This document shows positions 1-16,848 of a stretch of 18,872 bases of DNA, piece after piece. The stretch comes from a virus. Taxonomy: Duplodnaviria > Heunggongvirae > Uroviricota > Caudoviricetes. How positions within the stretch are numbered: position 1 is the stretch's first letter; each line of letters opens with the position of its first letter. The notes under the pieces are model-generated. The model saw only the letters and a list, made by a program, of their open reading frames with translations. It did not search any database and had not been told where the DNA came from. The translations under genes and the position numbers were made by a program. The stretch covers positions 1 to 18,872 of IMG/VR virus record IMGVR_UViG_2663763227_000001; one strand, written 5' to 3'.

Positions 1-104
1 GGGTTACCCCCAAACGAATCGGAAAATCGATACTGGAAAAACTCTAACTCGGTGGCCAGTTTTTGTTGACCACTTCAGTCAGACGAAGCGCGACTGGCTC
101 TCGA

Positions 105-662
105 ATGGAAAGCGCGATGGGGAGATCGGGCTGCATGACTATCAAATCAAATACGCCAGCACACGACAAGGACTGCTGGCAAACGCCGCTTTGGCTTTTT
201 GATGCACTGGATATTGAGTTTGGATTCTGGCTGGATTCGGCAGCGAGCGACAAAAATGCTCTGTGCGCTCACTGGCTAACTGAGGACGACGACGCGCTCA
301 ATTCTGAGTGGGTAAGCCACGGTGCAATCTGGAATAACCCACCGTACAGCAATATCAGGCCGTGGGTGGAAAAAGCCGCTGAGCAGTGTATACAACAGCG
401 ACAGACGGTAGTGATGCTTGTGCCAGAGGATATGTCTGTCGGATGGTTCAGCAAGGCTCTGGAGAGTATTGACGAAGTTCGCATCATCACTGATGGACGG
501 ATTAATTTTATCGAACCATCGACAGGGCTGGAGAAGAAGGGAAACAGCAAAGGTTTCATGCTGCTGATTTGGCGACCGTTCATCAGTCCTCGACGGATGT
601 TTACTACCGTATCCAAAGCAGCATTGATGGCGATCGGGCAGGGCGTCAGGAGGGCGGCATGA
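105..662 (+). CDS. Phage-type DNA N6-adenine methyltransferase (Dam family); start ambiguous (ATG at 105, 117 or 135)
   Basis: Translation contains the N6-adenine MTase motif IV NPPY (...[11 protein letters not shown]...) and the W-x-TP-x-W-LF N-terminal signature of small phage Dam proteins. Sits in the nin region. The ORF track extends to a TTG at 63; a GGAG lies about 12 nt upstream of ATG 135. Confidence 0.8.
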
Positions 663-841
663 GGCGACAGCGACGAAGTATCACCGACATAATCTGCGAA
701 AACTGCAAATACCTTCCAACGAAACGCTCCAGAAATAAACGCAAGCCAATCCCAAAAGAATCTGACGTAAAAACCTTCAACTACACGGCTCACCTGTGGG
801 ATATCCGGTGGCTTAGAGAACGTGCGAGGAAAACAAGGTGA
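659..841 (+). CDS. ninE: NinE-like small basic protein (60 aa)
   Basis: ATG at 659 overlaps the Dam stop (ATGA). Basic 60-aa product [18 protein letters not shown]... matches the size and character of lambda NinE from memory, and the position before ninF fits. Not verified by search. Confidence 0.5.
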
Positions 842-1017
842 TTGACCCAAATCGAAGTTACGAACAACAAAGCGTCGAGCGGGCTTTAACGTGCGCTAAC
901 TGCGGTCAGAAGCTGCATGTGCTGGAAGTTCACGTGTGTGAGCGTTGTATATATGAATGCTTAAATATGGTGGAACATAATGAGAAATATAAGCAACATA
1001 GACGAATTAAGAAATAA
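838..1017 (+). CDS. ninF: NinF-like zinc-ribbon protein, 5' portion with altered C-terminus (reading frame runs into the HNH insertion)
   Basis: GTG start at 838 overlaps the ninE stop (GTGA). Translation ...[26 protein letters not shown] carries a CxxC-x17-CxxC zinc ribbon. After codon 948 the sequence turns AT-rich and the frame continues as [22 protein letters not shown] to a stop at 1015-1017. Missed by the ORF track (59 aa). Confidence 0.5.
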
Positions 1018-1486
1018 ATTATCATATGATGATGTTTTAGGTGTACTTAGATGGAAAGTGTCTCCTTCTAATAATGTTAAGGTTGGCAGTGTTGCTGGTT
1101 ACATTAGGAGTGATGGTTATAGGATGTTAACTATCGATGGTGTAATTACTTATGCTCACCACGTTATATGGATGATAAATAATGGTGAGATTCCATTAGG
1201 GTATAAAATTGACCATATAAATGGAGTAAGGTCAGATAATAGGCTATCTAATCTTCGATTGGTTACACACCAACAGAATGCACAGAACCAAAAGAGAAAA
1301 ATAACCAATTCGTCAGGAGTGACTGGAGTATATTTCAATAAAGAGAGATGCAAGTGGATTGCGAATATATGCGTAGATGGGCGCACCAAATATCTTGGAA
1401 TATTTGCTAGCATCATTGACGCTATTGCAGAAAGGAAGAGGGCAGAAAAAGAACTGGGTTTTCATGAAAACCATGGCAGACCATAA
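980..1486 (+). CDS. HNH homing endonuclease (HNH_3 catalytic motif plus C-terminal AP2-like DNA-binding domain)
   Basis: Catalytic motif IDHINGVRSDNRLSNLRLVTHQQN; C-terminal SGVTGVYFNKERCKWIANICVDGRTKYLGIF resembles an AP2 domain. The gene is markedly AT-rich against about 50% GC flanks and lies inside the ninF reading frame. Confidence 0.85.
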   Translation: MRNISNIDELRNKLSYDDVLGVLRWKVSPSNNVKVGSVAGYIRSDGYRMLTIDGVITYAHHVIWMINNGEIPLGYKIDHINGVRSDNRLSNLRLVTHQQNAQNQKRKITNSSGVTGVYFNKERCKWIANICVDGRTKYLGIFASIIDAIAERKRAEKELGFHENHGRP

Positions 1487-1487
1487 C

Positions 1488-1547
1488 TGCGCAGAACTGA
1501 TGAGCGATCCGAATAGCTCAATGTACGAGGAAGAAGACGATGAGTGA
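1488..1547 (+). pseudogene. ninF: Displaced 3' remnant of ninF (encodes CAELMSDPNSSMYEEEDDE-stop)
   Basis: Directly after the HNH stop (1484-1486) a short frame reads CAELMSDPNSSMYEEEDDE then TGA. This is the expected continuation of the NinF C-terminus following the zinc ribbon, as recalled for lambda NinF. It has no start codon of its own. Confidence 0.4.
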
Positions 1548-1719
1548 TGTTAAAGAAAAAGATATCCCCGGCTTTGAGGGTATATATAAAGTAACTGAAA
1601 ATGGAGACATCATTTCATGCCGTAAATCAAAAAAATTATCTCATGGCATTAAACCAGGAGGATATGCATTTGTCGGTCTGTATCCAGGTGGCGGGAAAAG
1701 GGAGGGGATTGATGTTTAG
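1540..1719 (+). pseudogene. NUMOD4-like N-terminal domain only (59 aa); probable truncated remnant of a second homing endonuclease
   Basis: MSDVKEKDIPGFEGIYKVTENGDIISCRKSKKLSHGIKPGGYAFVGLYPGGGKREGIDV parallels the N-terminus of the 14449 HNH gene ([12 protein letters not shown]...GGYLFVGL) but stops before any catalytic motif. AT-rich. ATG overlaps the ninF-remnant stop. Confidence 0.35.
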
Positions 1720-1987
1720 AAGCAAAAAATGGCTTCAGGCAGTCAGGGATATTGAATTTTGCGTTCTTTGCGGAAGATACGGAGTTCAGGCCGCTCACAG
1801 AAATGAAGGGAAGGGGGTTGGGATTAAAGTAGATGATTGCCTTACTGCTGCGCTATGTGTTGATTGTCATTCAAGAATTGATAATGGAAGAGATATGAGC
1901 AGGGAAGAGCGAAGGGCTGAAATGGATCGGGCCATTGTGCTTACCCTTAAAAAATTGGTTAACAATGGGAGGGTGTTTGTCCAATGA
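1712..1987 (+). CDS. YbcO/DUF1364-like putative nuclease (His-Me finger type), 91 aa
   Basis: Motif FCVLCG...AAH...LCVDCHSRIDNG (CxxC...AH...CxxCH..ID) as in the E. coli DLP12 YbcO family. Strong SD GGGAGGGG 3-6 nt upstream of ATG 1712. Sits directly before rusA as in DLP12-type nin regions. The ORF-track start at 1601 is probably an upstream extension. Confidence 0.7.
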   Translation: MFRSKKWLQAVRDIEFCVLCGRYGVQAAHRNEGKGVGIKVDDCLTAALCVDCHSRIDNGRDMSREERRAEMDRAIVLTLKKLVNNGRVFVQ

Positions 1988-2346
1988 ACGAATATCAGTT
2001 TGTGCTTCCATACCCGCCGTCGCTGAATACCTACTGGCGAAGAAGGGGAAGCCAATACTACATCAGCGATAAAGGCCAGAAATACCGAAAAGATGTACAG
2101 CAAATAATCCGCCAACTCAAGTTAGACATTTTCACCAAATCACGACTCCGCATCAAAGTCATCGCAGACGTTCCAGACTCCCGCCGCCGCGACCTCGATA
2201 ACATCCTGAAAGGTTTACTCGACTCGCTTATCCACGCCGGATTTGCGGAAGACGACGAGCAATTCGATGACATTCGCGTAATTCGTGGTGTGAAAGTACC
2301 AGGCGGAAGGCTTGGAATAAAAATCACCGAACTGGAGAACGTATGA
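1984..2346 (+). CDS. rusA: Holliday junction resolvase RusA
   Basis: 120 aa; MNEYQFVLPYPPSLNTYWRR...DSRRRDLDNILKGLLDSLIHAGF...GGRLGIKITELE aligns along its length with E. coli RusA (same length, conserved RRRDLDN and GGRL). Start overlaps the previous stop (ATGA). Confidence 0.9.
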   Translation: MNEYQFVLPYPPSLNTYWRRRGSQYYISDKGQKYRKDVQQIIRQLKLDIFTKSRLRIKVIADVPDSRRRDLDNILKGLLDSLIHAGFAEDDEQFDDIRVIRGVKVPGGRLGIKITELENV

Positions 2347-2486
2347 ACAAAGCATTCGAACGATATATGCGCCAGCGTTATGGCAATCGCTATGACCTGA
2401 CGCGAGATGTTGAAGGATTCTACTGTCGTGAAATTGTGAAACGAATGTTTGAAGTTTGGTGTCATTGCAAAGGATGGGAGGTCTGA
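2343..2486 (+). CDS. Small YlcG-like protein (47 aa) between rusA and Q
   Basis: ATG 2343 overlaps the rusA stop (ATGA); its stop TGA 2484-2486 overlaps the next ATG (TGATG). A small ORF occupies this position in DLP12 (ylcG). Below the ORF-track length cutoff. Confidence 0.45.
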   Translation: MNKAFERYMRQRYGNRYDLTRDVEGFYCREIVKRMFEVWCHCKGWEV

Positions 2487-3100
2487 TGCGGTTAACTCCA
2501 GTATACAGCATGGTTAACTTCATTAATGACGCGCACTTTCGCCGCGTATGGAGACATCCGAAGAAAACCATCAACTCTAGCCAGAAAGCATGGGTTCATT
2601 ACATGTTACAGGTATGGGGCAAGGTTAACGCCGGAGATTGCTCTCCTGGTGGTGCAATTAACGTTATCGGTCGCCTGATGATTCGCAGTCAGTGGAGCGA
2701 TGACAAGGCTAAGCAGATAGAGTCTGTCGTCATGCGCCTGTACGAAGAAGATGGGCTGCGCGGAGATGAGCTATACAAGAAAGCTCGCGAACTGGTCATT
2801 CCTCAATCATCGTTTAGCCACATCATCACTCTCGCCAAAGAATCAGATGATGCGGCTTTCGTTGAACGTGTGATGGTCAAGACTTTTCACCGTGAAAGCC
2901 CCGTCCGCGATGTAGCTATTAAGCGATATTGCAATCGCAATTGCACGCAAGATATAGCCAGGATGATTTCTTATATAACAGGTGCTGATATTCAGTATTG
3001 TCGTAAGCGAGTGGTGTGGTGTGAGAAAGTGCTGGAGTCAGAAATGTTTTATGCAATGAAACGAGAATTGGAGAAAGAATTTCCATTAATAGCGGCCTGA
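2486..3100 (+). CDS. Putative late-gene antiterminator Q (not the lambda Q type)
   Basis: Positional call: last gene of the nin block, directly upstream of the late leader and lysis cassette. SD GGGAGG 4 nt upstream of ATG 2486. Cys cluster CNRNC...C-x6-C near the C-terminus; N-terminal region loosely resembles 82/933W-type Q proteins. No similarity to lambda Q as remembered. The ORF-track start at 2456 is a TTG extension. Confidence 0.55.
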   Translation: MRLTPVYSMVNFINDAHFRRVWRHPKKTINSSQKAWVHYMLQVWGKVNAGDCSPGGAINVIGRLMIRSQWSDDKAKQIESVVMRLYEEDGLRGDELYKKARELVIPQSSFSHIITLAKESDDAAFVERVMVKTFHRESPVRDVAIKRYCNRNCTQDIARMISYITGADIQYCRKRVVWCEKVLESEMFYAMKRELEKEFPLIAA

Positions 3101-3123
3101 ACTGAAATAATTTTGTAAATGCG

Positions 3124-3152
3124 TTGCTTCCGAGAAATGAAAGTGGTATTTT
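3124..3152 (+). promoter_or_regulatory. Candidate late promoter (PR'-like): TTGCTT -35, 17-nt spacer, TG-extended -10 TATTTT
   Basis: TTGCTT at 3124-3129, TGg at 3144-3146, TATTTT at 3147-3152. Lies between the Q stop and the terminator at 3259-3290, which would give a transcript of about 130 nt. Weak consensus match; placement is by analogy with lambda PR'/tR'. Confidence 0.3.
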
Positions 3153-3258
3153 TCGTATATGCTCGGAGCAAAAGCGAACTGAGCAGCGAAATTGAAATCC
3201 TGATTTCCCCGGTTGTCGATAATATTTAGGGTCGACATACTGGCTAGATTAGGTAAGA

Positions 3259-3290
3259 GCCTCGGCATAAACGTCGGGGCTTTTTTGTTT
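3259..3290 (+). terminator. Intrinsic terminator, tR'-like (end of short late leader RNA)
   Basis: Hairpin GCCTCGGC / ATAAAC loop / GTCGGGGC (8 bp including two G-U pairs) followed by TTTTTTGTTT. The sequence just downstream (GCACAACAGGTAAGAGCATTGA) resembles the lambda region downstream of tR', from memory. Confidence 0.6.
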
Positions 3291-3718
3291 GCACAACAGG
3301 TAAGAGCATTGAACCCGCAGACCTCGCGGAATTGGCGAAAGGTGCCGCGCAGTGCTCTTATCGTTGTGGTGAAGCTCAATGGCGAGCTAGCAGATAGGCG
3401 ATAGTGAAAATACTAGTCATGTAGCTGACCGCCGCGCGTACTGCAATCGGCAGCGCACCGATGGAAGCCGGTTCGATTCCGGCTGCCACAACCCAAACTG
3501 AGCCGTAGCCACTGGCTATCCTAGATTCATCAGTGATAGTTATGCTGCGGCCTTCTACACATGACCTTCGTGAAAGCGGTGGCAAGAGGTTGCGCTAACA
3601 ACCTCCTGCCATTTTGCCCGTGCATATCGGTCACGAACAAATCTGATTACTAAACACAGTAGCCTGGATTTGTTCTATCAGTAATCGACCTTATTCCTAA
3701 TTAAATAGAGCAAATCCC

Positions 3719-3744
3719 CTTACTGGGGGTAAGACATGAAGATG
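3719..3744 (+). promoter_or_regulatory. S-gene translational control element: sdi-like hairpin over the SD plus dual-start motif ATG-AAG-ATG
   Basis: CTTAC (3719-3723) / TGGGG loop / GTAAG (3729-3733) immediately upstream of ATG 3736 and ATG 3742. This is the lambda S107/S105 antiholin/holin dual-start arrangement. Confidence 0.6.
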
Positions 3745-4059
3745 CCAGAAAAACATGACCTGTTAGCCGCCATTCTCGCGGCAAAGGAACAAGGCATCGG
3801 GGCAATCCTTGCGTTTGCAATGGCGTACCTTCGCGGCAGATATAATGGCGGTGCGTTTACAAAAACAGTAATCGACGCAACGATGTGCGCCATTATCGCC
3901 TGGTTCATTCGTGACCTTCTCGACTTCGCCGGACTAAGTAGCAATCTCGCTTATATAACGAGCGTGTTTATCGGCTACATCGGTACTGACTCGATTGGTT
4001 CGCTTATCAAACGCTTCGCTGCTAAAAAATCCGGAGTAGAAGATGGTGGAAATCAATAA
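3736..4059 (+). CDS. S: Holin S (lambda class I holin; S107 from ATG 3736, S105 from ATG 3742)
   Basis: 107-aa translation [45 protein letters not shown]... is nearly identical to lambda S as remembered. Confidence 0.95.
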
Positions 4060-4519
4060 TCAACGTAAGGCGTTCCTCGATATGCTGGCGTGGTCAGAGG
4101 GAACAGATAACGGACGACAGAAAACCAGAAATCACGGTTATGACGTCATTGTTGGCGGAGAGCTATTCACTGATTACTCCGATCACCCTCGCAAACTTGT
4201 CACGCTAAACCCCAAACTCAAATCAACAGCAGCCGGACGTTACCAGCTTCTTTCCCGTTGGTGGGATGCTTACCGTAAGCAGCTTGGCCTGAAAGACTTC
4301 TCTCCCAAAAGCCAGGACGCTGTTGCGCTGCAGCAGATTAAGGAGCGTGGCGCTTTACCGATGATTGATCGCGGTGATATTCGTCAGGCAATCGACCGTT
4401 GCAGCAATATCTGGGCTTCACTGCCGGGTGCTGGTTATGGTCAGTTCGAGCATAAGGCTGACAGCCTGATTGCAAAATTCAAAGAAGCTGGCGGAACGGT
4501 CAGAGAGATTGAGGTATGA
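4043..4519 (+). CDS. R: Endolysin R (lambda-type lytic transglycosylase)
   Basis: 158 aa; [51 protein letters not shown]... is nearly identical to lambda R. Start overlaps the end of S. Confidence 0.95.
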
Positions 4520-4974
4520 GCAGAGTAACCGCGATTATCTCCGCTCTGGCTATCTGCATCATCGTTTGCCTGTCATGGGCTGTTAATCATTACCGTGATA
4601 ACGCCACCGCCTACAAAGAGCAGCGCGATAACAAGGCCAGTGAACTGGAGAAGGCGAACGCCACCATCGCTGACATGCGGAAGCGTCAACGTGATGTAGC
4701 AGAACTCGACGCAAGATACACAAAGGAGCTTGCTGATGCTAACGCGACTATCGAAAGTCTCCGTGCTGATGTTTCTGCTGGGCGTAAGCGCCTGCAAGTC
4801 GCCGCCACCTGTGCAAAGTCAACGACCGGAGCCAGCGGCATGGGCGATGGAGAAAGCCCAGGACTTACAGCAGATGCTGAACTCAATTATTACCGTCTCC
4901 GAAGTGGAATCGACAAGATAACCGCGCAGGTTAACTACCTGCAGGAATACATCAGGACGCAATGCCTGAAATGA
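4516..4974 (+). CDS. Rz: Spanin inner-membrane subunit Rz (i-spanin)
   Basis: N-terminal TM segment [30 protein letters not shown] matches lambda Rz, followed by a coiled-coil periplasmic domain; the C-terminal half diverges from lambda. Start overlaps the R stop (ATGA). Confidence 0.9.
4736..4921 (+). CDS. Rz1: Spanin outer-membrane lipoprotein Rz1 (o-spanin), embedded in the +1 frame of Rz
   Basis: ORF lies wholly inside Rz in another frame. Signal peptide [20 protein letters not shown] with lipobox-like VSAC, then a proline-rich mature part [22 protein letters not shown] 7 nt upstream of ATG 4736; the ORF-track start at 4730 is TTG. Confidence 0.75.
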
Positions 4975-5009
4975 TCGGGCGATGAAAACCAAAAAAACAG
5001 GAGCAATAC

Positions 5010-5285
5010 ATGACTAAGTTTTATCACCGCATCTCAACTTTTCTCTCTGGTTGCTGGGTGTTTATCACGTCTATTTCGTTCGCCATCTTTAGTTTCGGTA
5101 GCACAGCGTGCTCGCTTAGTCGGGGTCTGTGGCGTGCTATTTCAGCACTAGCGCCGAAATTTTTACCTGAAAAGGCTGTTTGGCGAATTGTAGAGCGAAT
5201 GTGTAGTGAGAGCGTTCGCGAGAAGATTAACGTATTTGGACGTTATCCTCGAAATACAGGCGCATTGTGCAGTCCGTTACTGTAG
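5010..5285 (+). CDS. Hypothetical small membrane protein (91 aa)
   Basis: AGGAG 8 nt upstream of ATG 5010. One predicted hydrophobic segment (FLSGCWVFITSISFAIFSF). No recognised homolog; sits between the lysis cassette and packaging genes, a typical cargo position. Confidence 0.35.
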   Translation: MTKFYHRISTFLSGCWVFITSISFAIFSFGSTACSLSRGLWRAISALAPKFLPEKAVWRIVERMCSESVREKINVFGRYPRNTGALCSPLL

Positions 5286-5579
5286 TCATCACAAAGCCTA
5301 TCTACGGGTGGGCTTGATAATGAAACCGGAATTTATTCTGGGCAACCAGTTACGGCAGTACAGCGAAACAACCCAAGCCAGTAAGTGGGGAAATAACACT
5401 GGCAGCCACTGAAAGATGAACCTCCAGCCTTATGGCAAAAAAGATTCTTTGTGGTGGCGGACTGATGGAAAGACATCGGTTATTGCAGAGACCATTCAAT
5501 GAGTGGTCTCGACAATGGCTTATACCCTACACGGGATAACTTAACTGATATCCCTTTTAACGGATAAACGGAGCCAACA

Positions 5580-5822
5580 ATGGCAGAGATTATTCCCATG
5601 ACTGAAGAACAGAAATTCCAGTTAGAGATTTACAAACTGGTCATGAACCAGAACGCAGCCGCAGAAGAAGCATTTCAATTCATTGGCACTGACGAGCTGA
5701 AGCTTGAGCTATTCAAAATTCACTTCCAGTCAGGCGGCGCTAATTCAGATATCACGATCCGCACACTTGAAGCGGTGCGTAAATCTAAGGAAGCGTTAGA
5801 CCTGTTCACTACCGGAACATGA
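5580..5822 (+). CDS. Hypothetical protein (80 aa)
   Basis: SD ACGGAG 8 nt upstream of ATG 5580, preceded by a hairpin plus T-tract at 5533-5558. Acidic, helical-looking product; no recognised family. Confidence 0.5.
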   Translation: MAEIIPMTEEQKFQLEIYKLVMNQNAAAEEAFQFIGTDELKLELFKIHFQSGGANSDITIRTLEAVRKSKEALDLFTTGT

Positions 5823-5823
5823 T

Positions 5824-6003
5824 GTGAGCCGCGTAATCAATTTGGGTAAGGAGAAGAAATTCCCAATTACTCAAGAGCTATACGAGCGGCTTGAAAGCGT
5901 CATCCATGATTACGATGGTGAAATAAGTTTATGCGAGGCGATTGGCACACTCGAATTGCTGAAGCAGTCACTGATTGAAGGCGCGAAAGAGTCCTCAACC
6001 TGA
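5824..6003 (+). CDS. Hypothetical small protein (59 aa; GTG start uncertain)
   Basis: Open frame from GTG 5824 (just after the previous stop) to TGA 6001-6003, ending 23 nt before terS. No strong SD for the GTG. Below the ORF-track cutoff. Confidence 0.25.
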   Translation: MSRVINLGKEKKFPITQELYERLESVIHDYDGEISLCEAIGTLELLKQSLIEGAKESST

Positions 6004-6026
6004 AATGACAATTAAGTGAGATAAAT

Positions 6027-6449
6027 ATGGCGACTGAACCAAAAGCTGGTCGCCCCTCTGATTATATGCCGGAGGTGGCTGACGATATCTGCTCGTTGCT
6101 TTCTTCTGGCGAAAGTTTGCTGAAAGTATGTAAGCGTCCTGGTATGCCGGATAAGTCCACTGTTTTCCGCTGGTTGGCAAAGCATGAGGATTTTCGCGAC
6201 AAGTACGCGAAGGCAACTGAGGCGCGAGCTGATTCTATTTTCGAAGAGATATTCGAAATTGCTGACACTGCGATTCCAGATGCTGCTGAGGTGGCAAAGG
6301 CAAGACTTCGCGTTGATACCCGCAAATGGGCGCTGGCCCGAATGAATCCCCGTAAGTATGGCGACAAGGTAACTAACGAGCTTGTCGGCAAAGACGGCGG
6401 CGCAATCCAGATTGAAACATCACCGATGAGCACTCTATTCGTAAAATGA
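6027..6449 (+). CDS. terS: Terminase small subunit (Sf6 gp1-like TerS, 140 aa)
   Basis: MATEPKAGRPSDYMPEVADDICSLLSSGESLLKVCKRPGMPDKSTVFRWL... matches the Sf6-type small terminase from memory (same length, N-terminal HTH-like DNA-binding region). Directly upstream of terL. Confidence 0.9.
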   Translation: MATEPKAGRPSDYMPEVADDICSLLSSGESLLKVCKRPGMPDKSTVFRWLAKHEDFRDKYAKATEARADSIFEEIFEIADTAIPDAAEVAKARLRVDTRKWALARMNPRKYGDKVTNELVGKDGGAIQIETSPMSTLFVK

Positions 6450-7861
6450 CCTCGATTAATCCTATCTTTGAACCGTTCATTGAGGCGCATCGCTACAAAG
6501 TTGCCAAAGGCGGTCGAGGTAGCGGTAAATCATGGGCAATTGCGAGGCTGCTTGTTGAAGCGGCGCGTCGGCAGCCAGTGCGTATTCTCTGCGCTCGTGA
6601 ACTGCAAAACAGTATCAGCGATTCGGTAATCCGGTTGCTTGAAGACACCATAGAGCGTGAAGGGTATACGGCTGAGTTTGAAATTCAGCGTTCTATGATT
6701 CGTCATCTCGGAACGAATGCTGAATTCATGTTCTACGGCATAAAAAACAACCCGACGAAGATTAAATCGCTCGAAGGCATTGATATCTGCTGGGTTGAAG
6801 AAGCGGAAGCGGTAACGAAGGAATCGTGGGATATCCTGATTCCAACCATCCGTAAGCCGTTCTCTGAAATATGGGTAAGTTTCAACCCGAAAAACATCCT
6901 CGACGATACCTATCAGCGATTCGTCGTAAATCCTCCCGATGATATTTGTCTGCTGACGGTGAACTACACCGACAATCCGCACTTTCCTGAAGTTCTCCGT
7001 CTGGAGATGGAAGAGTGTAAACGCAGAAATCCGACACTGTATCGTCACATCTGGCTTGGTGAGCCAGTAAGCGCAAGTGATATGGCAATCATCAAACGTG
7101 AATGGCTTGAAGCTGCTACCGATGCGCACAAGAAACTCGGATGGAAAGCGAAAGGCGCTGTTGTCTCTGCGCATGACCCGTCAGATACAGGGCCAGATGC
7201 TAAAGGTTACGCATCGCGTCACGGTTCGGTGGTTAAGCGCATTGCCGAAGGTCTGCTGATGGACATCAACGATGGTGCTGACTGGGCTACTTCGCTGGCG
7301 ATTGAAGACGGCGCTGACCATTACCTGTGGGATGGTGATGGTGTTGGTGCCGGGCTACGCAGACAGACAACGGAAGCGTTCTCCGGCAAGAAAATCACCG
7401 CTACGATGTTCAAGGGCAGCGAATCGCCATTTGATGAAGATGCACCATATCAGGCCGGAGCATGGGCTGATGAAGTCGTGCAGGGCGACAACGTTCGCAC
7501 TATTGGCGATGTATTCCGCAATAAGCGAGCGCAATTCTATTACGCGCTGGCTGACAGGCTGTATCTGACATATCGGGCGGTTGTCCACGGTGAGTATGCA
7601 GACCCCGACGACATGCTGAGTTTCGACAAAGAAGCGATAGGCGAGAAGATGCTGGAGAAGCTGTTTGCAGAACTGACGCAGATTCAGCGCAAATTCAATA
7701 ACAACGGGAAGCTGGAGCTAATGACTAAGGTCGAAATGAAGCAGAAGCTAGGTATTCCATCTCCTAACCTGGCTGATGCGTTGATGATGTGTATGCATTG
7801 CCCTGAGTCGGCTGCGCAACCCGACTATTCCAGTTACTCAATTCCTTGTGGTGTAGGTTGA
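6446..7861 (+). CDS. terL: Terminase large subunit (ATPase/nuclease; Sf6 gp2 / P22 gp2-like)
   Basis: 471 aa; Walker A KGGRGSGKS near the N-terminus and an acidic nuclease-like C-terminal domain. Start overlaps the terS stop (ATGA). Length and synteny match P22/Sf6 TerL. Confidence 0.95.
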   Translation: MTSINPIFEPFIEAHRYKVAKGGRGSGKSWAIARLLVEAARRQPVRILCARELQNSISDSVIRLLEDTIEREGYTAEFEIQRSMIRHLGTNAEFMFYGIKNNPTKIKSLEGIDICWVEEAEAVTKESWDILIPTIRKPFSEIWVSFNPKNILDDTYQRFVVNPPDDICLLTVNYTDNPHFPEVLRLEMEECKRRNPTLYRHIWLGEPVSASDMAIIKREWLEAATDAHKKLGWKAKGAVVSAHDPSDTGPDAKGYASRHGSVVKRIAEGLLMDINDGADWATSLAIEDGADHYLWDGDGVGAGLRRQTTEAFSGKKITATMFKGSESPFDEDAPYQAGAWADEVVQGDNVRTIGDVFRNKRAQFYYALADRLYLTYRAVVHGEYADPDDMLSFDKEAIGEKMLEKLFAELTQIQRKFNNNGKLELMTKVEMKQKLGIPSPNLADALMMCMHCPESAAQPDYSSYSIPCGVG

Positions 7862-7862
7862 T

Positions 7863-10061
7863 ATGGCAGAAAAAAAGATGACTGACTGGCATCGCAAGGT
7901 GCTGTGCAACTTTGATAATGCCTGGTCAGCAACGCAGGATATGCGTGAGCAGATTATTGAGGCTCAACGTTTCGTCCGGGTGTCCGGCGCACAGTGGGAA
8001 GGCAGCACAAACGCTGGTTACTCATTTGATGAAGGTAGGTTTGAGCATTACCCGCGCTTTGAACTAAATAAGATTGCCCGTGAATGTGATCGCATCATTG
8101 GCGAGTATCGACAGAATCGCATCAGCGTTAAATTCAGGCCGAAGGACGATAAGGCATCGGAAGCGTTAGCCGAAAAGATGAACGGCAAATTCCGCGCTGA
8201 CTATCAGGAAACATCCGGTGGCGAAGCGTGTGATAACGCATTTGATGATGCTGTAACGGGCGGATTCGGTTGTTTCCGCATGTGTGCCGATTACGAAGAT
8301 GAAATGGATCCGAGTAACGAGCAACGCCGTATAAGCCTTCTCCCTGTTTACGACCCAGCGACATGCGTCTTCTTTGATCAGGACAGCAAGCAATATGACC
8401 GCTCTGATGCTATGTGGGCTATGGAAATGTTCTCCATGACGCCTAAAGCGTTCGAGGCTGAATACCCTGATTCCATCGCGGCAAGCCTTTCTCGTGATGA
8501 CACTGGCACTCAATATGACTGGTCAACGCCCGATGCCATCTATGTTGGACGCTACTACGAAGTTCGCATAGAGAAGGTGAAGCTCACGGCGTGGCGCAAC
8601 CCTGTTAGCGGAGAAACGGCAATCTATGATGAAGAGCAAATCAAAGATGTTGTCGACGAGCTAACCGATGGCGCATTCGAACTGATTGGTGAGCGAACGG
8701 TGAAGAAACGCCGCGTTTATTGCGGCCTTCTGTCTGGCGCTGAATGGCTGGAAGAACCGAAGCGTATTCCGGGCGAACATATTCCTCTCATCCCGGTATA
8801 TGGGCGTCGTTCATTTGTTGATAATCAGGAGCGAATCGAAGGCCACGCAGCAAAAGCGATGGATGCACAGCGTCTTGAGAACCTGATGGTTTCCATGATT
8901 GCAGATAACGCCACTCAGGCTGGCGGTGATGGTATTCCTGTAGTTGATGTTGACATGATTCCTGGTCCTCTCGCCACTCATTGGGCGGAGCGCAACAAAA
9001 AGCGCCCGGCGTTCCTGCCGATGGTCAGTCTGAAAAACAAAAACGGAGATATTACTGCGCAGGCTCAGGTCAGCAGTTATACACCTCCAACACAAATGCC
9101 TCCTGCTCTTGCCGGGCTATTACAGTACACCGGAACGGCTATTCAGCAAATTACAGGTGCGTCGCAGCTTGAGAACATGCCGAGCAACGTCGCTACCGAT
9201 ACCGTTGATAGCATCTTTAACAGGATGGACACGCAGTCATATATCTACATGGACAACATGGCTAAATCCATGCGTCGCGCTGGCGTTGTGTGGCTTTCTA
9301 TGGCGCGTGAGGTCTATGGCAGCGATACGCCAATGCGCATCGTTAATGAGGACGGCAGCGATGACGTGGCGCTGATGACTGGTGAAGTGGTTGACCGTCA
9401 GACAGGGCAGGTTATCGCGCTTAACGACCTTTCGCAGGGTAACTATGAAGTGACTGTCGATGTTGGTCAGTCGTTCGCTACTCGCCGTGATGCAACGGTT
9501 AAGTCGTTACTTTCCATGCTGGCACTTATCCCGCCTGGAACGCCGAAACACGACCTTGTGTCGTCTCTTATTCTCGACAATATGGACGGCGAAGGGATGG
9601 ACGACCTTAAAGAATACAACCGCAATCAGTTGCTTCTGTCTGGCGTTATCAAGCCGAAAACGCCAGAAGAACAGCAAATGGTTGAGCAGGCGAAACAACA
9701 ACAGGCCAGTCAGCCAGATCCGGCTATGGTTGCTGCGCAAGGTCAGCTTCTTGCTGGTCAGGCTGAATTGCAGAAAGCGCAGAACGAACAGGCAGCCATT
9801 CAGGTTAAAGCATTCCAGGCACAGACTGATGCTCATGTTGCAGCGGCAAATGTTGTGAAAATCCTCGCATCTGCCGATAGCCAGCAGAAATCTGATATCC
9901 GCGAGGCTCTGAAACTGCTCGGACAGTTCCAGCAACAGCAAGGAGACAATGCCCGTGCTGATGCAGAGCTTGTCCTGAAAAGTCAGGCGCAGGGACATGC
10001 ACAACGCATGGACATCAGCAGCATCCTGCAAAAATCAACTCAGCAACAACCACAGCAGTAA
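7863..10061 (+). CDS. Portal protein (P22 gp1-like, with C-terminal Gln-rich helical barrel)
   Basis: 732 aa; segments GRYYEV, GEHIPLIPVYG, KTPEEQQMVEQAKQQQ...DPAMVAAQGQLLAGQAELQKAQN and NARADAELVLKS...QRMDISSILQ align with P22 portal gp1 as remembered, including the long C-terminal barrel helix. Confidence 0.95.
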   Translation: MAEKKMTDWHRKVLCNFDNAWSATQDMREQIIEAQRFVRVSGAQWEGSTNAGYSFDEGRFEHYPRFELNKIARECDRIIGEYRQNRISVKFRPKDDKASEALAEKMNGKFRADYQETSGGEACDNAFDDAVTGGFGCFRMCADYEDEMDPSNEQRRISLLPVYDPATCVFFDQDSKQYDRSDAMWAMEMFSMTPKAFEAEYPDSIAASLSRDDTGTQYDWSTPDAIYVGRYYEVRIEKVKLTAWRNPVSGETAIYDEEQIKDVVDELTDGAFELIGERTVKKRRVYCGLLSGAEWLEEPKRIPGEHIPLIPVYGRRSFVDNQERIEGHAAKAMDAQRLENLMVSMIADNATQAGGDGIPVVDVDMIPGPLATHWAERNKKRPAFLPMVSLKNKNGDITAQAQVSSYTPPTQMPPALAGLLQYTGTAIQQITGASQLENMPSNVATDTVDSIFNRMDTQSYIYMDNMAKSMRRAGVVWLSMAREVYGSDTPMRIVNEDGSDDVALMTGEVVDRQTGQVIALNDLSQGNYEVTVDVGQSFATRRDATVKSLLSMLALIPPGTPKHDLVSSLILDNMDGEGMDDLKEYNRNQLLLSGVIKPKTPEEQQMVEQAKQQQASQPDPAMVAAQGQLLAGQAELQKAQNEQAAIQVKAFQAQTDAHVAAANVVKILASADSQQKSDIREALKLLGQFQQQQGDNARADAELVLKSQAQGHAQRMDISSILQKSTQQQPQQ

Positions 10062-10151
10062 TTAACCCATAACGTGCAATGGCTGTCTTTATGAGGCCTG
10101 GCACCCTATTGCCTTCCGATGGGCTGAACATCGAGTAAACAGGGGTAACAA

Positions 10152-11048
10152 ATGGACCAGATGGCAGAAAACACACCAGAAGTTGAAATCGAAACCGACG
10201 CGTCAGAGCAGATTCCTGATGATGTCAAACTGGCTGAAGAAGTCGAAACAGAAGATGGCAGTGAGTACTCCGGCAATGATGCAGAGAAAGCTACTGAAAC
10301 TGATGACGACGAATCAGAACAGGAATTCTACTTTGGTGACGAAAAGCTGGATTCGCCAACCAGCGAAGATGGCGCAGAGCATGGACTGGTAAAACACCTG
10401 CGCAAGACGATTAAAGAGAAAGACCGTGAGCTGAAAGAGCTGATGCGTCAGTCTCAGAAACCCGTCGAGCAGCAGCCGGTAATCACTCAACCACCTCGAA
10501 TGCCAAAACTGGATGATGAGGACATTGGTTTCGATGAAGAAATCTACCAGCAACGCATGGCTAAGTGGGCAGAGGATAACGGCAAGTACCAGCAACAGGA
10601 GATGGCTCGCAAGCAGAAGGAGCAGGAGCTTCAGGCTGCCTATCAAGAGCGATTATCCAAATATCAGCAACGTGTTAAGGCTCTCAAAGTTCCTGGCTAT
10701 CAGGAAGCTGAGCAGGCCGTACTCGAGGAAATCCCCATCGAGACACAAAACGCGATCCTGTTTGAGTCAGAGAAGCCGGAAATCGTTGTTCTGGCGCTCG
10801 GTCGCAACGCTGAACTGCGCAAGAAACTGGCAGAAGCTACCAACCCCGTAGCAATTGGTCGTCTGCTGGAACGTATCGAATCGAAGGCCAGAATCATGCC
10901 AAAAGCAAAAACCACGGCAGCCACAACCCCGACAGTTAAGGGGAGCAACGGCGCAGTAATCAATAACCTCGACAAACTTCTCGAAAAAGCACGCGACACC
11001 GGTGATTACACCGAATACCGGGCGGCGAAGAACAAAGCTAAAAAATAA
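10152..11048 (+). CDS. Scaffolding protein (P22 gp8-like)
   Basis: 298 aa, highly acidic N-terminus, coiled-coil-rich, basic helix-turn-helix-like C-terminus (...DTGDYTEYRAAKNKAKK). Position between portal and coat as in P22/Sf6. Confidence 0.8.
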   Translation: MDQMAENTPEVEIETDASEQIPDDVKLAEEVETEDGSEYSGNDAEKATETDDDESEQEFYFGDEKLDSPTSEDGAEHGLVKHLRKTIKEKDRELKELMRQSQKPVEQQPVITQPPRMPKLDDEDIGFDEEIYQQRMAKWAEDNGKYQQQEMARKQKEQELQAAYQERLSKYQQRVKALKVPGYQEAEQAVLEEIPIETQNAILFESEKPEIVVLALGRNAELRKKLAEATNPVAIGRLLERIESKARIMPKAKTTAATTPTVKGSNGAVINNLDKLLEKARDTGDYTEYRAAKNKAKK

Positions 11049-11068
11049 TCCATCGGAGCTAAATACCT

Positions 11069-12328
11069 ATGTCTAACCAGTTAACCAAAGACCTCGAAAT
11101 CCTCTTTGAGAGCGTCATTGATAGTTTTGAGGCGTCCAATGTCGTTTCCCGCGAGTGCAGCAAGTTCCGACCGGGCGACATTGAAATGCAGCGCGCTGGC
11201 GACGTTGTTTATCGCCCTCAGGGCTACCACCTGAAAACCGTGAGCGGACTTGATCTGACTTCGGCCACTGCAAACTCACTCGTTCAGCGTCAGGTGCCTG
11301 CTCGCTTCCGCGAGCCAGAGAACGTCATCTACGAACTGGACGCAAAAGAAATGCGCGATCCGTGGCACAAAGAGCAGGCTGGCAAGGCGGCGGGTCGCCA
11401 GTTGGCGGCGTGGGTTGATAACATGATCGTCGATGAGGTGGTCGCTCGCTCCACCAACGTGGTCACCATTAAATCGGCGTCCACCGGTAGCACTCTCGGC
11501 GAAGAACTCTGGAACGCATCGGCTGACGTTGATGCAATGATGCTGTCCATTGGTGTGCCTCAGGGTGGTCAGCGCAAGGCGTTCTACAACCCGTTCAACT
11601 ACAAAGACCTGGCTAAGGAGCTTGGCTCTCGCGCATATGCGGTCGGTGCAACTCTGACAGCCTATGAGAAAGCTCAGATTCCACCTGTGGCATCCTTCGA
11701 CAGTTTCCGCGTTGATTATGCTGGCGCAATGAAGGCTGGTTCAGCTACCGCTGTAACTCTCGGCGGCGCAGTAAAACACAAAGTTACCGCGATGGATTCC
11801 AACGGCGCGCCTACCGATAACCGCCAGGGTGACATCACCGTATCCACTGCTGACGTACTGGCTGTCGGCGATGCATTCACTATCGCAGGCGTTAACAGTG
11901 TCCACATGATCAAGAAGGTGGATACAGGTAAGCCGCAGGTATTCCGCGTCCTGGCAGTAAATGGCACTACCGTTACCATCAGCCCGAAAATTCTGCCACC
12001 AGACAACGCGGATAAGGCGTCTATTCCTTACCAGAACGTTACCGCCAATCCGGTGGAAAACGCGGCGATCACCATCCTCAACAAGAAGGCTGCGGCTTCC
12101 AACATCTTCTTCGCTGAGGGTTCTGTTGAGCTGATGTATGGCAAGTTGGCATTCCCTACCGGCCAGGGTCCGCAGGTTATGACCGCAAGGACCGAGCAGG
12201 GTGCGACCATCATCATGGCTTACCAGTTCGACGCTAAATCTGGCAAAACGTGGACTCGCTTCACCACGCTGGCTGGCGCAAGCGTACTGGTCCCGGAATT
12301 CACCGGCCTGGTACTGGCTAACCAGTAA
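11069..12328 (+). CDS. Major capsid (coat) protein (P22 gp5 / Sf6 gp5-like)
   Basis: 419 aa in the expected position after the scaffold gene and followed by a strong intrinsic terminator; size matches P22-type coat proteins. Sequence similarity to P22 gp5 itself is not obvious by eye. Confidence 0.85.
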   Translation: MSNQLTKDLEILFESVIDSFEASNVVSRECSKFRPGDIEMQRAGDVVYRPQGYHLKTVSGLDLTSATANSLVQRQVPARFREPENVIYELDAKEMRDPWHKEQAGKAAGRQLAAWVDNMIVDEVVARSTNVVTIKSASTGSTLGEELWNASADVDAMMLSIGVPQGGQRKAFYNPFNYKDLAKELGSRAYAVGATLTAYEKAQIPPVASFDSFRVDYAGAMKAGSATAVTLGGAVKHKVTAMDSNGAPTDNRQGDITVSTADVLAVGDAFTIAGVNSVHMIKKVDTGKPQVFRVLAVNGTTVTISPKILPPDNADKASIPYQNVTANPVENAAITILNKKAAASNIFFAEGSVELMYGKLAFPTGQGPQVMTARTEQGATIIMAYQFDAKSGKTWTRFTTLAGASVLVPEFTGLVLANQ

Positions 12329-12333
12329 TCCAA

Positions 12334-12358
12334 GGGGCTTCGGCCCCTCTTTTTTTTT
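12334..12358 (+). terminator. Intrinsic terminator downstream of the coat gene
   Basis: GGGGC-TTCG-GCCCC hairpin (GC-rich 5-bp stem with a TTCG tetraloop) followed by TCTTTTTTTTT, 6 nt after the coat stop. Confidence 0.8.
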
Positions 12359-12368
12359 GGAGATCGAA

Positions 12369-12557
12369 ATGTCTCAAATCATGCTTTATAAGCCGGGATC
12401 GATGATCACCTGCGGCCCCCACTCGCTGGATTACATCATCGTTGATGACGAAGAAGTTAAATCTCACCTGAAAAAAGGCTGGGTAAAAACTCCTGAAGAA
12501 ACCGCAACGAAGCAAAAAGTGGCTAAGGCGGAAGAAGATGGCGAAAATGAAGGGTGA
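12369..12557 (+). CDS. Hypothetical small protein (62 aa) between coat and gp4-like genes
   Basis: ATG 12369 with GGAG about 7 nt upstream; C-terminal acidic tail; 3' end overlaps the next gene. The ORF track shows an upstream extension from 12201 that overlaps the coat gene and is unlikely. Confidence 0.45.
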   Translation: MSQIMLYKPGSMITCGPHSLDYIIVDDEEVKSHLKKGWVKTPEETATKQKVAKAEEDGENEG

Positions 12558-12999
12558 TCTCGTTCTAAAGGCTTTACGAAAAGCCGGGCTGTATTCCAAT
12601 GCCACGTTGACAGATGCTGACCCTCAGGCAATTGAAGATGCCATTAATGACCTCGAAGACATGATGGCAGCATGGCAGGCTAAAGGTATCGAGCTTGGAT
12701 ATCAGTTTGCTGATACAGAAAACGGCATCATGCCGTTACCTGACGATGATTCAGGTATCCCTGCATGGGCAAATGATGGCGTCGCTTTGAAACTCGCTGT
12801 GCAAGTGTGCATGGATAACGTCATTCAGCCGTCAGACGCTCTCCTTACCGCTGCTGACAGTGCATATCAGACAATCTGCATCGCTTTAACCAAAATACCA
12901 CCACTTGAGCGGCGAAATGACATGCCTCGCGGTAGTGGTAACAAAAGCGCGTTTACGTGGAATCGGTTTTACATCGAGAAAGATGATCCGAGTACGTGA
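12538..12999 (+). CDS. Head completion / tail accessory protein (P22 gp4-like)
   Basis: 153 aa; KGDLVLKALRKAG...TLTDADPQAIEDAINDLEDMMAAWQ...MPRGSGN parallels P22 gp4 (KGDLV, TLTD, DDLE-MMA-W, GSGN). Correct synteny. Confidence 0.85.
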   Translation: MAKMKGDLVLKALRKAGLYSNATLTDADPQAIEDAINDLEDMMAAWQAKGIELGYQFADTENGIMPLPDDDSGIPAWANDGVALKLAVQVCMDNVIQPSDALLTAADSAYQTICIALTKIPPLERRNDMPRGSGNKSAFTWNRFYIEKDDPST

Positions 13000-13008
13000 G
13001 GTGAATAA

Positions 13009-14427
13009 ATGCCGATTCAGCAACTTCCGCTTATGAAAGGTGTCGGCAAAGACTTTCGAAACGCCGACTATATCGACTATCTGCCAGTGAATATGCTGGC
13101 TACGCCCAAAGAAATACTCAACAGCAGCGGATATCTTCGCTCATTCCCGGGCATTGCCAAACGTTCTGATGTGAACGGCGTATCGCGGGGCGTCGAGTAC
13201 AACATGGCGCAGAATGCTGTTTATCGCGTGTGTGGTGGCAAGCTCTACAAAGGCGAAAGCGAAGTAGGTGACGTCGCCGGAAGTGGTCGCGTATCAATGG
13301 CGCATGGTCGAACATCTCAGGCTGTAGGAGTTAATGGTCAACTGGTCGAGTATCGCTATGATGGCACGGTTAAAACCGTCTCAAACTGGCCTACAGATCG
13401 CGGATTCACGCAGTATGAGTTAGGTTCGGTTCGCGACATTACACGCTTACGTGGCCGTTATGCGTGGTCAAAAGACGGAACTGATTCATGGTTCATCACT
13501 GACCTTGAAGACGAATCGCATCCTGACCGTTACAGCGCACAATATCGCGCAGAATCGCAGCCGGACGGCATCATCGGCATCGGAACATGGCGAGACTTCA
13601 TCGTCTGCTTTGGTTCATCGACGATTGAATATTTTTCCCTGACTGGGGCAACCACCGTTGGTGCCGCTTTGTATGTCGCACAGCCATCACTGATGGTGCA
13701 GAAAGGCATTGCCGGAACTTACTGCAAAACGCCGTTTGCTGATTCCTATGCTTTCATCAGCAATCCGGCAACAGGTGCGCCGTCTGTATACATCATCGGA
13801 TCCGGTCAGGTGTCACCAATCGCCAGCGCGAGCATTGAGAAAATCCTCCGCTCCTACACTGCTGATGAACTGGCTGATGGCGTGATGGAATCGTTGCGCT
13901 TTGATGCTCATGAGTTGCTGATTATCCACCTTCCGCGCCACGTCCTAGTATATGACGCATCTTCAAGCGCCAATGGTCCGCAATGGTGTGTGTTGAAAAC
14001 TGGCTTGTATGACGATGTGTACCGCGCTATCGACTTCATTTACGAAGGCAATCAGATAACGTGCGGCGATAAGCTGGAATCCGTGACCGGGAAATTGCAG
14101 TTCGACATCAGCAGCCAGTATGGGCTGCAGCAAGAACATATTTTATTTTCACCATTAATAAAGGCAGATAATGTCATTATTAATGACCTTGAATTAGAAA
14201 CATCAGGCGGCGTGTGTGATAGAATAGATAAAATATTTATATCAGCAACAACAGATGGAATAAATTACGGCAGGGAACAAATGGTCGTATTGCAATCTCC
14301 ATTTGTATATGACAATCGAGTCTTATGGCGCAGGATTGGAAGAGTTAGACGTCTCATCGGTTTTAAATTCAGAGTTATTGCAAAAGGCCCGGTTACATTA
14401 TCCGGACTGTCTATTCGTACAACATAA
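13009..14427 (+). CDS. Tail accessory / hub protein (P22 gp10-like); 3' ~300 nt compositionally AT-rich
   Basis: 472 aa, the same length as P22 gp10, in the correct position after the gp4-like gene. GC content drops sharply from about 14130 to the stop, continuous with the AT-rich HNH gene downstream. Confidence 0.9.
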   Translation: MPIQQLPLMKGVGKDFRNADYIDYLPVNMLATPKEILNSSGYLRSFPGIAKRSDVNGVSRGVEYNMAQNAVYRVCGGKLYKGESEVGDVAGSGRVSMAHGRTSQAVGVNGQLVEYRYDGTVKTVSNWPTDRGFTQYELGSVRDITRLRGRYAWSKDGTDSWFITDLEDESHPDRYSAQYRAESQPDGIIGIGTWRDFIVCFGSSTIEYFSLTGATTVGAALYVAQPSLMVQKGIAGTYCKTPFADSYAFISNPATGAPSVYIIGSGQVSPIASASIEKILRSYTADELADGVMESLRFDAHELLIIHLPRHVLVYDASSSANGPQWCVLKTGLYDDVYRAIDFIYEGNQITCGDKLESVTGKLQFDISSQYGLQQEHILFSPLIKADNVIINDLELETSGGVCDRIDKIFISATTDGINYGREQMVVLQSPFVYDNRVLWRRIGRVRRLIGFKFRVIAKGPVTLSGLSIRTT

Positions 14428-14448
14428 ATCGAAACTTAAGGAGTAGAT

Positions 14449-16143: not shown

Positions 16144-16145
16144 CC

Positions 16146-16838: not shown

Positions 16839-16848
16839 GGGGTAATCA

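Follow-up and report, generated by a model that had tools for sequence, protein, structure and literature searches.

A probable free-standing homing endonuclease gene of the HNH family inserted directly into ninF of lambdoid prophages

How can a small phage gene be cut in two by a complete endonuclease gene and yet leave both of its halves readable? This question is raised by the ninF gene in the stretch of DNA analysed here, IMG/VR virus record IMGVR_UViG_2663763227_000001 (Caudoviricetes), positions 1 to 18,872, which is referred to in full as the window (18,872 nucleotides, nt). Within ninF lies an open reading frame (ORF) for an HNH endonuclease, and we set out to establish what kind of element this is, whether it still moves and whether ninF is put back together. 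The answer reached below is that a free-standing homing endonuclease gene of the HNH_3/I-HmuI-like kind, with an AP2-like domain, was very probably inserted directly in ninF after the codon of the fourth zinc-ribbon cysteine.

A preliminary description, made from the letters of the sequence, had read the locus as a 5' part of ninF, an HNH ORF and a 3' remnant of ninF, and all of its coordinates hold (Table 1). The two ninF pieces together make up a normal 171-nt gene. The 5' piece, which is 97-99% identical to ninF of HK75, HK97 and lambda and is also assigned to PHROG 672, ends with codon 37 (...HVCERC, 946-948), the last native codon before foreign sequence. Past this codon the ninF frame reads on until a stop at 1015-1017, and the resulting product keeps all four cysteines, matches Pfam NinF (PF05810; E-value 6e-12, 45.7 bits against a cut-off of 27.5) and is identical to a 59-residue product that RefSeq names 'protein NinF' (WP_057695715.1); its insert-derived tail is unchanged in 35 of 36 copies, one residue being different in locus L033. 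GC content drops from about 0.50 outside to 0.34-0.37 over the insert, and alignment with ninF of HK75, Dewey and lambda shows a single clean 539-nt gap, in agreement with the earlier claim that removal of 949-1487 rejoins ninF. The boundary is ambiguous by one base, uninterrupted alleles reading ...TGC|TGCGCAG: excision of 948-1486 (T...TAA, ending on the HNH stop codon) gives back the common TGC codon, and excision of 949-1487 leaves TGT, which is natural too (locus L005). The 3' remnant is open in all copies examined. In-frame ATGs before or within it are found at 1464, 1473 and 1500, and no Shine-Dalgarno sequence was found upstream of these three candidate starts. Five different downstream genes have a start codon that overlaps the end of ninF in this way (an ATG, or for the E2348/69 type a GTG); a sixth downstream sequence occurs in L050. 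No promoter or terminator was found inside the insert.

Table 1. Features of the interrupted ninF and of its surroundings. Positions are those of the window unless a locus is named.
Feature	Position	Strand	Remarks
Dam methyltransferase gene	63-662		first in the gene order given here
ninE			between the Dam methyltransferase gene and ninF
ninF 5' part	838-948	+	GTG start overlaps ninE stop; codons 1-37; full CxxC...CxxC zinc ribbon
NinF as now translated	838-1017	+	59 residues: 37 native plus 22-residue tail read from the insert; overlaps HNH start
Codons CGT TGT	943-948	+	CAC TGC in uninterrupted alleles; two or three substitutions, in insert-bearing alleles only
Insert	949-1487 (equally 948-1486)	+	539 nt, AT-rich; promoter-less cassette with a homing endonuclease gene (probable) in the same orientation
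Shine-Dalgarno-like GGTGGA	969-974	+	5 nt before HNH ATG; putative role; second lineage has AGGAG in the equivalent place
HNH-AP2 endonuclease ORF	980-1486	+	ATG start, 168 residues, intact
HNH catalytic module	1151-1285	+	residues 58-102, also the Pfam stretch; D78-H79 ... N91 ... N100/N103
AP2-like DNA-binding domain (predicted)	1313-1456	+	residues 112-159; three-stranded sheet plus helix
ninF 3' remnant	1488-1547	+	19 codons plus stop, CAELMSDPNSSMYEEEDDE; third reading frame; own start unconvincing
GAGGAA and ATG of next gene	1527-1542	+	inside ninF 3' end; ATG 1540 overlaps ninF stop 1545-1547; putative ribosome-binding site
Dead NUMOD4-HNH gene	1540-1719		directly after ninF
DUF1364/YbcO gene	1712-1987		
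RusA gene	1984-2346		
Further free-standing HNH gene	L014 3081-3683		related nin region
Further free-standing HNH gene	L013/L014 5053-5577		related nin region
Further free-standing HNH gene	L015 2768-3253		related nin region
Further free-standing HNH gene	L068 1225-1836		related nin region
Further free-standing HNH gene	L005 287-889		related nin region

The insert is present or absent at one precise site in otherwise homologous genes. The search for an uninterrupted ninF in lambdoid phages that had been proposed at the outset returned 218 phage records matching 838-1547, and all 218 match in two pieces that cover 166-171 nt of the record, that is, they carry an uninterrupted ninF. About 1,650 E. 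coli genomes have uninterrupted ninF only, and the interrupted gene is found in 44 of 5,426 complete E. coli genomes, including that of the reference enteropathogenic strain E2348/69. The same insert occupies the same site in 29 IMG/VR contigs, in 5 metagenome contigs and in thousands of E. coli assemblies, and the exact 168-residue protein has entries in 3,440 public assembly blocks. Forty-two copies, located by a search for CGTTGT|ATATATG, have a common 3' junction, except that L012 and L023 differ by one or two substitutions where the remnant begins, in its first codons. All but one of 36 copies have an intact HNH ORF. Two N-terminal types of ninF carry the insert, one lying next to ninE and the other (MLSPSQSLQYQ...) next to ninX, and these are followed by at least six downstream sequences, including those of NinG, a KilAC antirepressor, a 70-residue protein, the E2348/69 type and a NUMOD4-HNH gene. 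In the literature on ninF with HNH or homing endonucleases we found no description of the insertion; RefSeq does annotate parts of it.

The protein encoded by the insert was assigned by sequence and by predicted structure. It matches Pfam HNH_3 (E-value 1.2e-19, 70 bits against a cut-off of 24.8) and PHROG 99 (phrog_99, 'HNH endonuclease', E-value 3e-70). In an alignment of 55 homologues D78, N91, R93 and N103 are invariant and H79 and N100 nearly so, and the HNH module with its catalytic D78, H79, N91 and N100 aligns with the DH...N...N motif of I-HmuI. The AP2 domain is sub-threshold by sequence (Pfam E-value 0.024, 15.4 bits against a curated cut-off of 33.3), and PF00847 (AP2) is found in several of the homologues. 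An AlphaFold model built on the 55-homologue alignment (predicted local distance difference test score 89.5) has an N-terminal HNH module followed by strands 117-120, 125-132 and 135-142 and a helix at 145-159. With this model the top Foldseek match in the PDB was the homing endonuclease I-HmuI (1U3E; E-value 3.7e-4, probability 1.0), and the C-terminal domain matched plant and apicomplexan AP2 domains (7ET5, 7ET4 and 1GCC) with probabilities of 0.99-1.0 and weak E-values. Relatives below 60% identity occur in 3,805 phage records, those listed being annotated as HNH or homing endonucleases; the nearest ones in isolated phages are about 50% identical and belong mostly to Klebsiella siphophages, and none was confirmed in bacterial and archaeal genomes sampled at one genome per species. 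On sequence and model, then, the insert protein is an I-HmuI-like HNH endonuclease with an AP2-like domain, and the 'HNH-AP2' label originally given to it is right.

Other kinds of element that split genes were tried against the locus and rejected. An Rfam 15 scan of positions 600-2000 on both strands, with E-values up to 10, gave no group I or group II intron and no other relevant family; the sole match listed, a CnfY thermometer on the minus strand (E-value 5.2), is a chance one. The predicted RNA fold of 929-1507 (the insert with 20 nt on each side) was no better than that of shuffled sequences (z = -1.1), and the insert has no more non-coding sequence than 31-32 nt before the ORF and 0-1 nt after it. 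The insert starts with AUAUAUG, not GUGYG, and ends in C (1487) or A (1486), not in the terminal G of group I introns; the 5' exon does end in U (948), as at group I splice sites. A group I intron was ruled out by the missing Rfam core, the ordinary fold, the wrong 3' end and the scant non-coding RNA, which bears out the initial view that no classical group I ribozyme is present. A group II intron was rejected for its lack of GUGYG and of any group II match in Rfam and for an ORF that encodes an HNH-AP2 protein, not a reverse transcriptase. An intein would not fit a length (539) that is not a multiple of three, the stop at 1015-1017 or the use of three frames by the HNH ORF and the two ninF parts, and an insertion sequence or transposon was ruled out as neither terminal inverted repeats nor a duplicated target were found, the two flanks join up exactly in the empty site and the only ORF is the HNH one. 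Ribosomal bypass of the T4 gene 60 type was likewise discarded: the take-off codon UGU differs from the landing codon UGC and is followed by AUA UAU GAA with no stop until 1015, and the gap would be 539 nt as against about 50 nt in gene 60. The abundant empty sites, the lack of a detectable ribozyme and the I-HmuI-like protein with its AP2-like domain support the early suggestion of a free-standing endonuclease inserted directly into a gene.

A related gene at the same site was found in a 909-nt Logan contig (L007), and this second lineage gives the insert some depth in time. Its protein, P0002, has 85% amino-acid identity to that of the first lineage, and its 5' junction reads ...HVCEKC TGT, then ATATATG, with a 31-nt leader. 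Identity between the two lineages at the first, second and third codon positions is 89/93/60%, which points to an old split and to an ORF under purifying selection. Only DPNGQMLEKDDG and the stop are kept of the ninF remnant, a 27-nt deletion having taken the HNH stop and the first six remnant codons (CAELMS), and the HNH ORF reads eight codons into the remnant, out of frame. Another reading of L007, as an exact 539-nt insert in a ninF with the short native C-terminus GQMLEKDDG, was ruled out by natural NinF variants ending in ...CAELMADPNGQMLEEDDE. The tail that NinF gains from the insert differs completely between lineages, that of the second being IYVLLNAGDDHEDNN. As read from this contig, the 3' part of ninF is not preserved in the sole old lineage available. 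No uninterrupted lineage-2 ninF was found in viral or genome contigs with back-translated patterns, which were built on the rejected reading of the L007 junction, and metagenomes gave no further lineage-2 copies, only lineage-1 copies and distant relatives.

Diversity was compared between insert and flanks in 41 copies, which fall into 17 haplotypes. It is 0.45% in the insert and 0.3-0.5% within 30 nt on either side, and rises to 1.7% in the last 70 nt of ninF upstream and 2.1% in the first 52 nt downstream. Common host polymorphisms stand at -67 and at +33/+37, and low diversity is limited to about -60 to +30. The commonest haplotype is represented by 13 identical copies, which occur with both ninF N-terminal types and with four downstream genes. 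Segregating sites in the ORF comprise 13 third, 7 first and 1 second codon positions; since nearly all copies are intact, variation is biased to third positions and the same bias separates the two lineages, we read the ORF as one that is under purifying selection. The overall pattern fits that expected of an element which recently moved between backgrounds with very short co-conversion tracts, and the shortness of the low-diversity block suggests cleavage close to the insertion site, as with intron-encoded enzymes. The preliminary description had offered either a very recent event or a rescue of ninF at the RNA or translation level to account for the intact remnant. The recent part stands in so far as the present spread is recent by its low diversity, but the 3,440 assembly blocks show that this was no one-off event, and rescue finds no support in a gene that is non-essential and that has suffered a 27-nt deletion in the second lineage.

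Based on these results we propose the following course of events. With no promoter of its own and lying in sense orientation, the endonuclease gene is presumably read from the delayed-early pR/nin transcript and translated from its own Shine-Dalgarno sequence, so that the enzyme would be made in lytic growth or on induction. In a lambdoid genome that is co-resident or co-infecting, it would recognise the highly conserved uninterrupted ninF around the codon of the fourth cysteine, near ...GTGTGTGAGCACTGC|TGCGCAGAACTG..., and cut or nick it there. Repair off the insert-bearing allele would then fill the empty site with a copy of the 539 nt and of a few tens of adjoining bases. The insertion, with the adjacent changes from CAC TGC to CGT TGT, would destroy the carrier's own target site. 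NinF would thereby be cut back to its zinc ribbon and a foreign 22-residue tail, the 3' remnant not being rescued. This truncation would be tolerated because ninF is dispensable: it is non-essential for plaque formation by lambda (PMC10695390, PMC3224144), and no function is assigned to it in these two sources. Since ninF is not needed, rescue at the level of RNA or translation is neither required nor indicated. The remnant would stay intact because each homing event lands in a fresh intact ninF, because the present sweep is young and because its last 20 nt or so hold GAGGAA and the overlapping start of the downstream gene. The anatomy of the locus, its empty and filled alleles, the family and fold of the protein, the selection on its ORF and the pattern of diversity were shown by the analysis; the cleavage specificity, the cut position, homing itself, the immunity of the carrier and the mode of expression are what we infer from the sequence.

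The two codons before the insert deserve separate mention. All 42 copies located through the CGTTGT|ATATATG junction have CGTTGT, lineage-1 alleles reading GAG CGT TGT where uninterrupted ones read GAG CAC TGC, and no copy with another 5' junction was found except that of the second lineage. A reconstructed empty site with CGTTGT had no exact counterpart in 213 phage alleles, the best matching over 48 of 51 nt (at most 94.1%), and its single match in E. coli genomes is a different allele, TCC GAT TGT. The changes may help to render the carrier uncuttable.

Junctions near the insertion point were also seen in other prophages, where several NinF homologues break off no more than two codons from the fourth cysteine. 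Four independent large deletions in defective prophages (at about 2608 in L061, 2614 in L062, 2607 in L063 and 2609 in L065; 944-948 in the window) have their left ends 1-4 nt before the insertion point, after GAT, GATT, GATT and GATTG, respectively, of ...TCC GAT TGT|TGC.... Their right ends differ, three lying in lysis or late-gene regions of the same phage type and that of L063 abutting late genes unmatched in the window. An allele with GCC GAT (L064, about 2648) diverges from ninF at the same point, and a widespread frameshift allele with 34 member sequences (L066, about 2611) has a 1-nt deletion exactly at +1. Further frameshift alleles of ninF are P0167, P0168, P0175, P0179 and P0192, variants of the form ...CE|LLRRTDERSE that correspond to indels no farther than about 10 nt from it. 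After ...DPN, at +27/+28 (about 1514-1516 in the window), junctions cluster a second time: L067 (about 2638) has a deletion to the scaffold gene, seen at the DNA level, and L068 and L069 have deletions to a tail-fibre gene, seen at the protein level only; P0123 breaks at the same residue, and the natural C-terminal variants SSM..., GDM... and GQML... diverge there too. The right end of the L007 deletion (556-557 in that contig), at about +20, lies near this second cluster. Such clusters fit repeated breakage at the homing site, suggestively at best in a sample biased by its means of detection, and the deletions may be the footprint of cutting by the endonuclease followed by illegitimate repair. 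That rival prophages are repeatedly disabled by large deletions which the enzyme sets off by cleaving ninF at this site is a possibility, though one that we think unlikely, if more likely than a ninF rejoined in RNA or translation. Two observations on repeats may be recorded here as well. An exact 8-nt direct repeat, TAACTGCG, stands at 897-904, in the first CxxC of ninF (GCT AAC TGC GGT), and at 1484-1491, across the HNH stop and the 3' junction, and is probably due to chance; P0185 (CANC|CAELMS...), a natural allele with an in-frame deletion, seems to have arisen by way of the TGC repeats of ninF.

Several points weigh against the proposal of an actively homing gene. The insert was found in none of 50,697 sequenced phage isolates, even at the 'distant' sensitivity of blastn, and all copies come from prophage or metagenome contigs. 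This absence is weak evidence, because about 2% of E. coli ninF genes are interrupted and about four copies would be expected among the 218 phage records, which are highly redundant. The diversity pattern could in principle have arisen from ordinary lambdoid recombination near a vertically inherited insert, and CGT TGT may have been carried along from the allele that was first invaded or have been ancestral to it. The junctions described above were collected by a NinF protein search, which can only detect breakpoints late in ninF, and the target and cut site, like the immunity of the carrier allele, are deduced rather than observed.

The strongest form of the recombination argument is that the insert is an immobile relic, which entered ninF once and lost its ability to home, its many backgrounds being due to vertical descent and to ordinary mosaic exchange between lambdoid phages. 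The nin regions of these phages are indeed highly mosaic, with many combinations of neighbouring genes, and the absence of the insert from isolated phages would agree with immobility. A neutral relic should decay, however, and here the ORF is intact in nearly every copy, varies mainly at third positions and bears the mark of purifying selection across the old split of the two lineages; moreover, an identical 539-nt haplotype beside flanks that differ at -67 and at +33/+37 demands exchanges within tens of bases of the insert. We therefore consider a relic quite improbable. Purifying selection would equally be expected if the nuclease had been domesticated as a weapon and kept for cutting ninF of competing or superinfecting phages and of co-resident prophages (marker exclusion), an idea that is compatible with homing. 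Nuclease genes at boundaries of phage genetic exchange have been discussed (PMC10448857), and deletions in other prophages do end at the ninF site. Selection on a homing endonuclease gene is nonetheless what the homing cycle alone predicts, and we give the weapon no better chance than the relic.

A second group of explanations concerns ninF itself rather than its invader, the host gene being split here by a free-standing endonuclease gene as in known genes in pieces. The zinc ribbon with its new tail might work as NinF, or the N-terminal fragment might reassemble with a separately translated C-terminal one, again compatibly with homing. The insertion exactly after the fourth cysteine spares the whole zinc ribbon, the N-terminal fragment has its native start and scores above the Pfam NinF cut-off, in-frame ATGs are available for the C-terminal fragment and NrdA-a and NrdA-b around mobE in phage Aeh1 provide a precedent (PMC3045599). 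Against this, ninF is non-essential and its retention not forced, the putative starts of the C-terminal fragment are without Shine-Dalgarno sequences, the tail of the N-terminal fragment differs from one lineage to the other and the second lineage has lost the first six codons of the remnant. A functional gene in pieces is thus rather improbable, if somewhat less so than a relic. Far less credible is a ninF made whole again in RNA or in translation, be it by a self-splicing element that escaped recognition or by long-range ribosomal bypass, which would yield a NinF with the junction peptide ...HVCERCCAELMSDPN.... Every copy of lineage 1 does have both halves open, the frame is regained when the insert is precisely removed and the 5' exon ends in the U of group I splice sites, but there is no relevant Rfam match, the fold is ordinary, the ends are wrong and the non-coding sequence minimal, no stop follows the supposed take-off codon, the gap is far longer than that in T4 gene 60 and the second lineage has no 3' junction at all. 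This mechanism we regard as next to excluded, and we put only marginally more trust in the broader idea that the halves are rejoined without a recognisable ribozyme and that the intact, in-frame remnant of lineage 1 reflects selection, not youth.

Among known systems, the closest case in kind to a homing endonuclease gene inserted directly in ninF is mobE in nrdA of phage Aeh1 (PMC3045599, PMC2988022). There, as here, a free-standing HNH gene with no intron or intein splits a coding sequence in the same orientation, and the upstream fragment acquires a tail from the insertion. In Aeh1, nrdA is needed, both fragments are translated and the insertion-derived tails are essential for assembling the active enzyme, whereas ninF is dispensable, its C-terminal remnant has 19 codons and no evident start and its tail is not conserved between lineages. 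The seg and mob genes of T4 are likewise promoter-less endonuclease cassettes within an existing polycistronic unit (PMC2988022), and their spread depends on the repair of double-strand breaks, in which flanking markers are co-converted ('intronless homing'); they are intergenic, and their cuts fall hundreds to thousands of bp away from where they are inserted, whereas the ninF insert interrupts an ORF. The HNH-AP2 (HNN-AP2) proteins of the Xanthomonas phages Xp10, OP1 and Xop411 and of many enterobacterial phages have the same two-domain architecture, and their genes go through cycles of gain and decay, for which the NUMOD4-HNH remnant next door provides a parallel, but they are described as freestanding and dispersed in their genomes (PMC2248197), unlike the intragenic insert in ninF. 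In FelixO1-like phages nrdD is interrupted by a homing endonuclease ORF and annotated as two fragments; the host gene and the endonuclease are other ones, and the source does not say whether an intron or a free-standing gene is involved (PMC4837284). As for the protein, I-HmuI of phage SPO1 (1U3E), the best match in sequence as well as in structure among solved structures, has the same HNH_3 module (DH...N...N) and a similar size (174 against 168 residues); identity in the structural alignment is about 22%, and its gene lies in a group I intron of the DNA polymerase gene. I-HmuI is a nicking enzyme with a helix-turn-helix C-terminal domain, in contrast to the AP2-like domain predicted here.

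The surroundings of ninF hold further endonuclease genes. Directly after ninF lies a dead second homing endonuclease gene. Its first 54 codons are 100% identical to the 169-residue NUMOD4-HNH endonuclease that phage Dewey encodes (L003 2164-2673); thereafter 330 bp have been lost in a clean internal deletion, which took out the catalytic part and fused the rest to the region in which the DUF1364/YbcO gene starts (ATG 1712). An IMG/VR contig, L038, has the ninF insert together with a full-length NUMOD4-HNH gene. In related prophages a NUMOD4+HNH_3 gene lies between ninB and ninE, an HNH_3 gene between ybcO and rusA and an HNH_3+AP2 gene upstream of ninB. The nin region is a general landing zone for free-standing HNH genes (listed in Table 1), and the ninF case is the sole intragenic one seen. 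The window as a whole represents a mosaic lambdoid genome, most likely a prophage, with late genes that look P22-like by ORF sizes and by matches to P22-like loci. From the Dam methyltransferase gene the order runs through ninE, the split ninF, the dead NUMOD4-HNH gene and the DUF1364/YbcO gene to the RusA gene, downstream of which lie ORFs of sizes that would suit Q and the genes for lysis, terminase, portal, scaffold and coat. No transfer RNA gene was found in the window, and its first 6 kb are matched over at most 74% by any complete E. coli genome in the collection.

Database records treat the locus, including the stretch at 1377-1547 of the window, in different ways. In E2348/69 (L001 3287-3713) the intact 168-residue HNH ORF is annotated merely as a partial pseudogene, and a coding sequence for a 51-residue 'protein NinF' has been assigned to an ORF that runs across the end of the HNH ORF in a different frame. 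The STEC308 record annotates the HNH gene completely, and the remnant is labelled in RefSeq as a NinF pseudogene fragment 'missing N-terminus' (L070 2103-2210). Some other records extend the range of the HNH gene to the ninF stop, and others give the remnant as a spurious second 'NinF' coding sequence, overlapping the 3' end of the HNH gene. The insertion explains this repeated oddity of an 'HNH endonuclease' flanked by two NinF coding sequences.

Overall, the insertion in ninF is a clean and widespread case of a known kind of mobile element, mechanistically unsurprising and with no new form of splicing or recoding. There is also a hint that cutting by the endonuclease at ninF may seed deletions that make prophages defective. 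Through this locus lambdoid phages, the classic model of mosaic evolution, would gain a natural case, clean and abundant, of a free-standing homing endonuclease within a gene, and, as lambda, HK97 and P22 all have empty-site alleles, homing, the length of co-conversion tracts and competition of phages with one another or with prophages would be directly measurable in a well-understood system.

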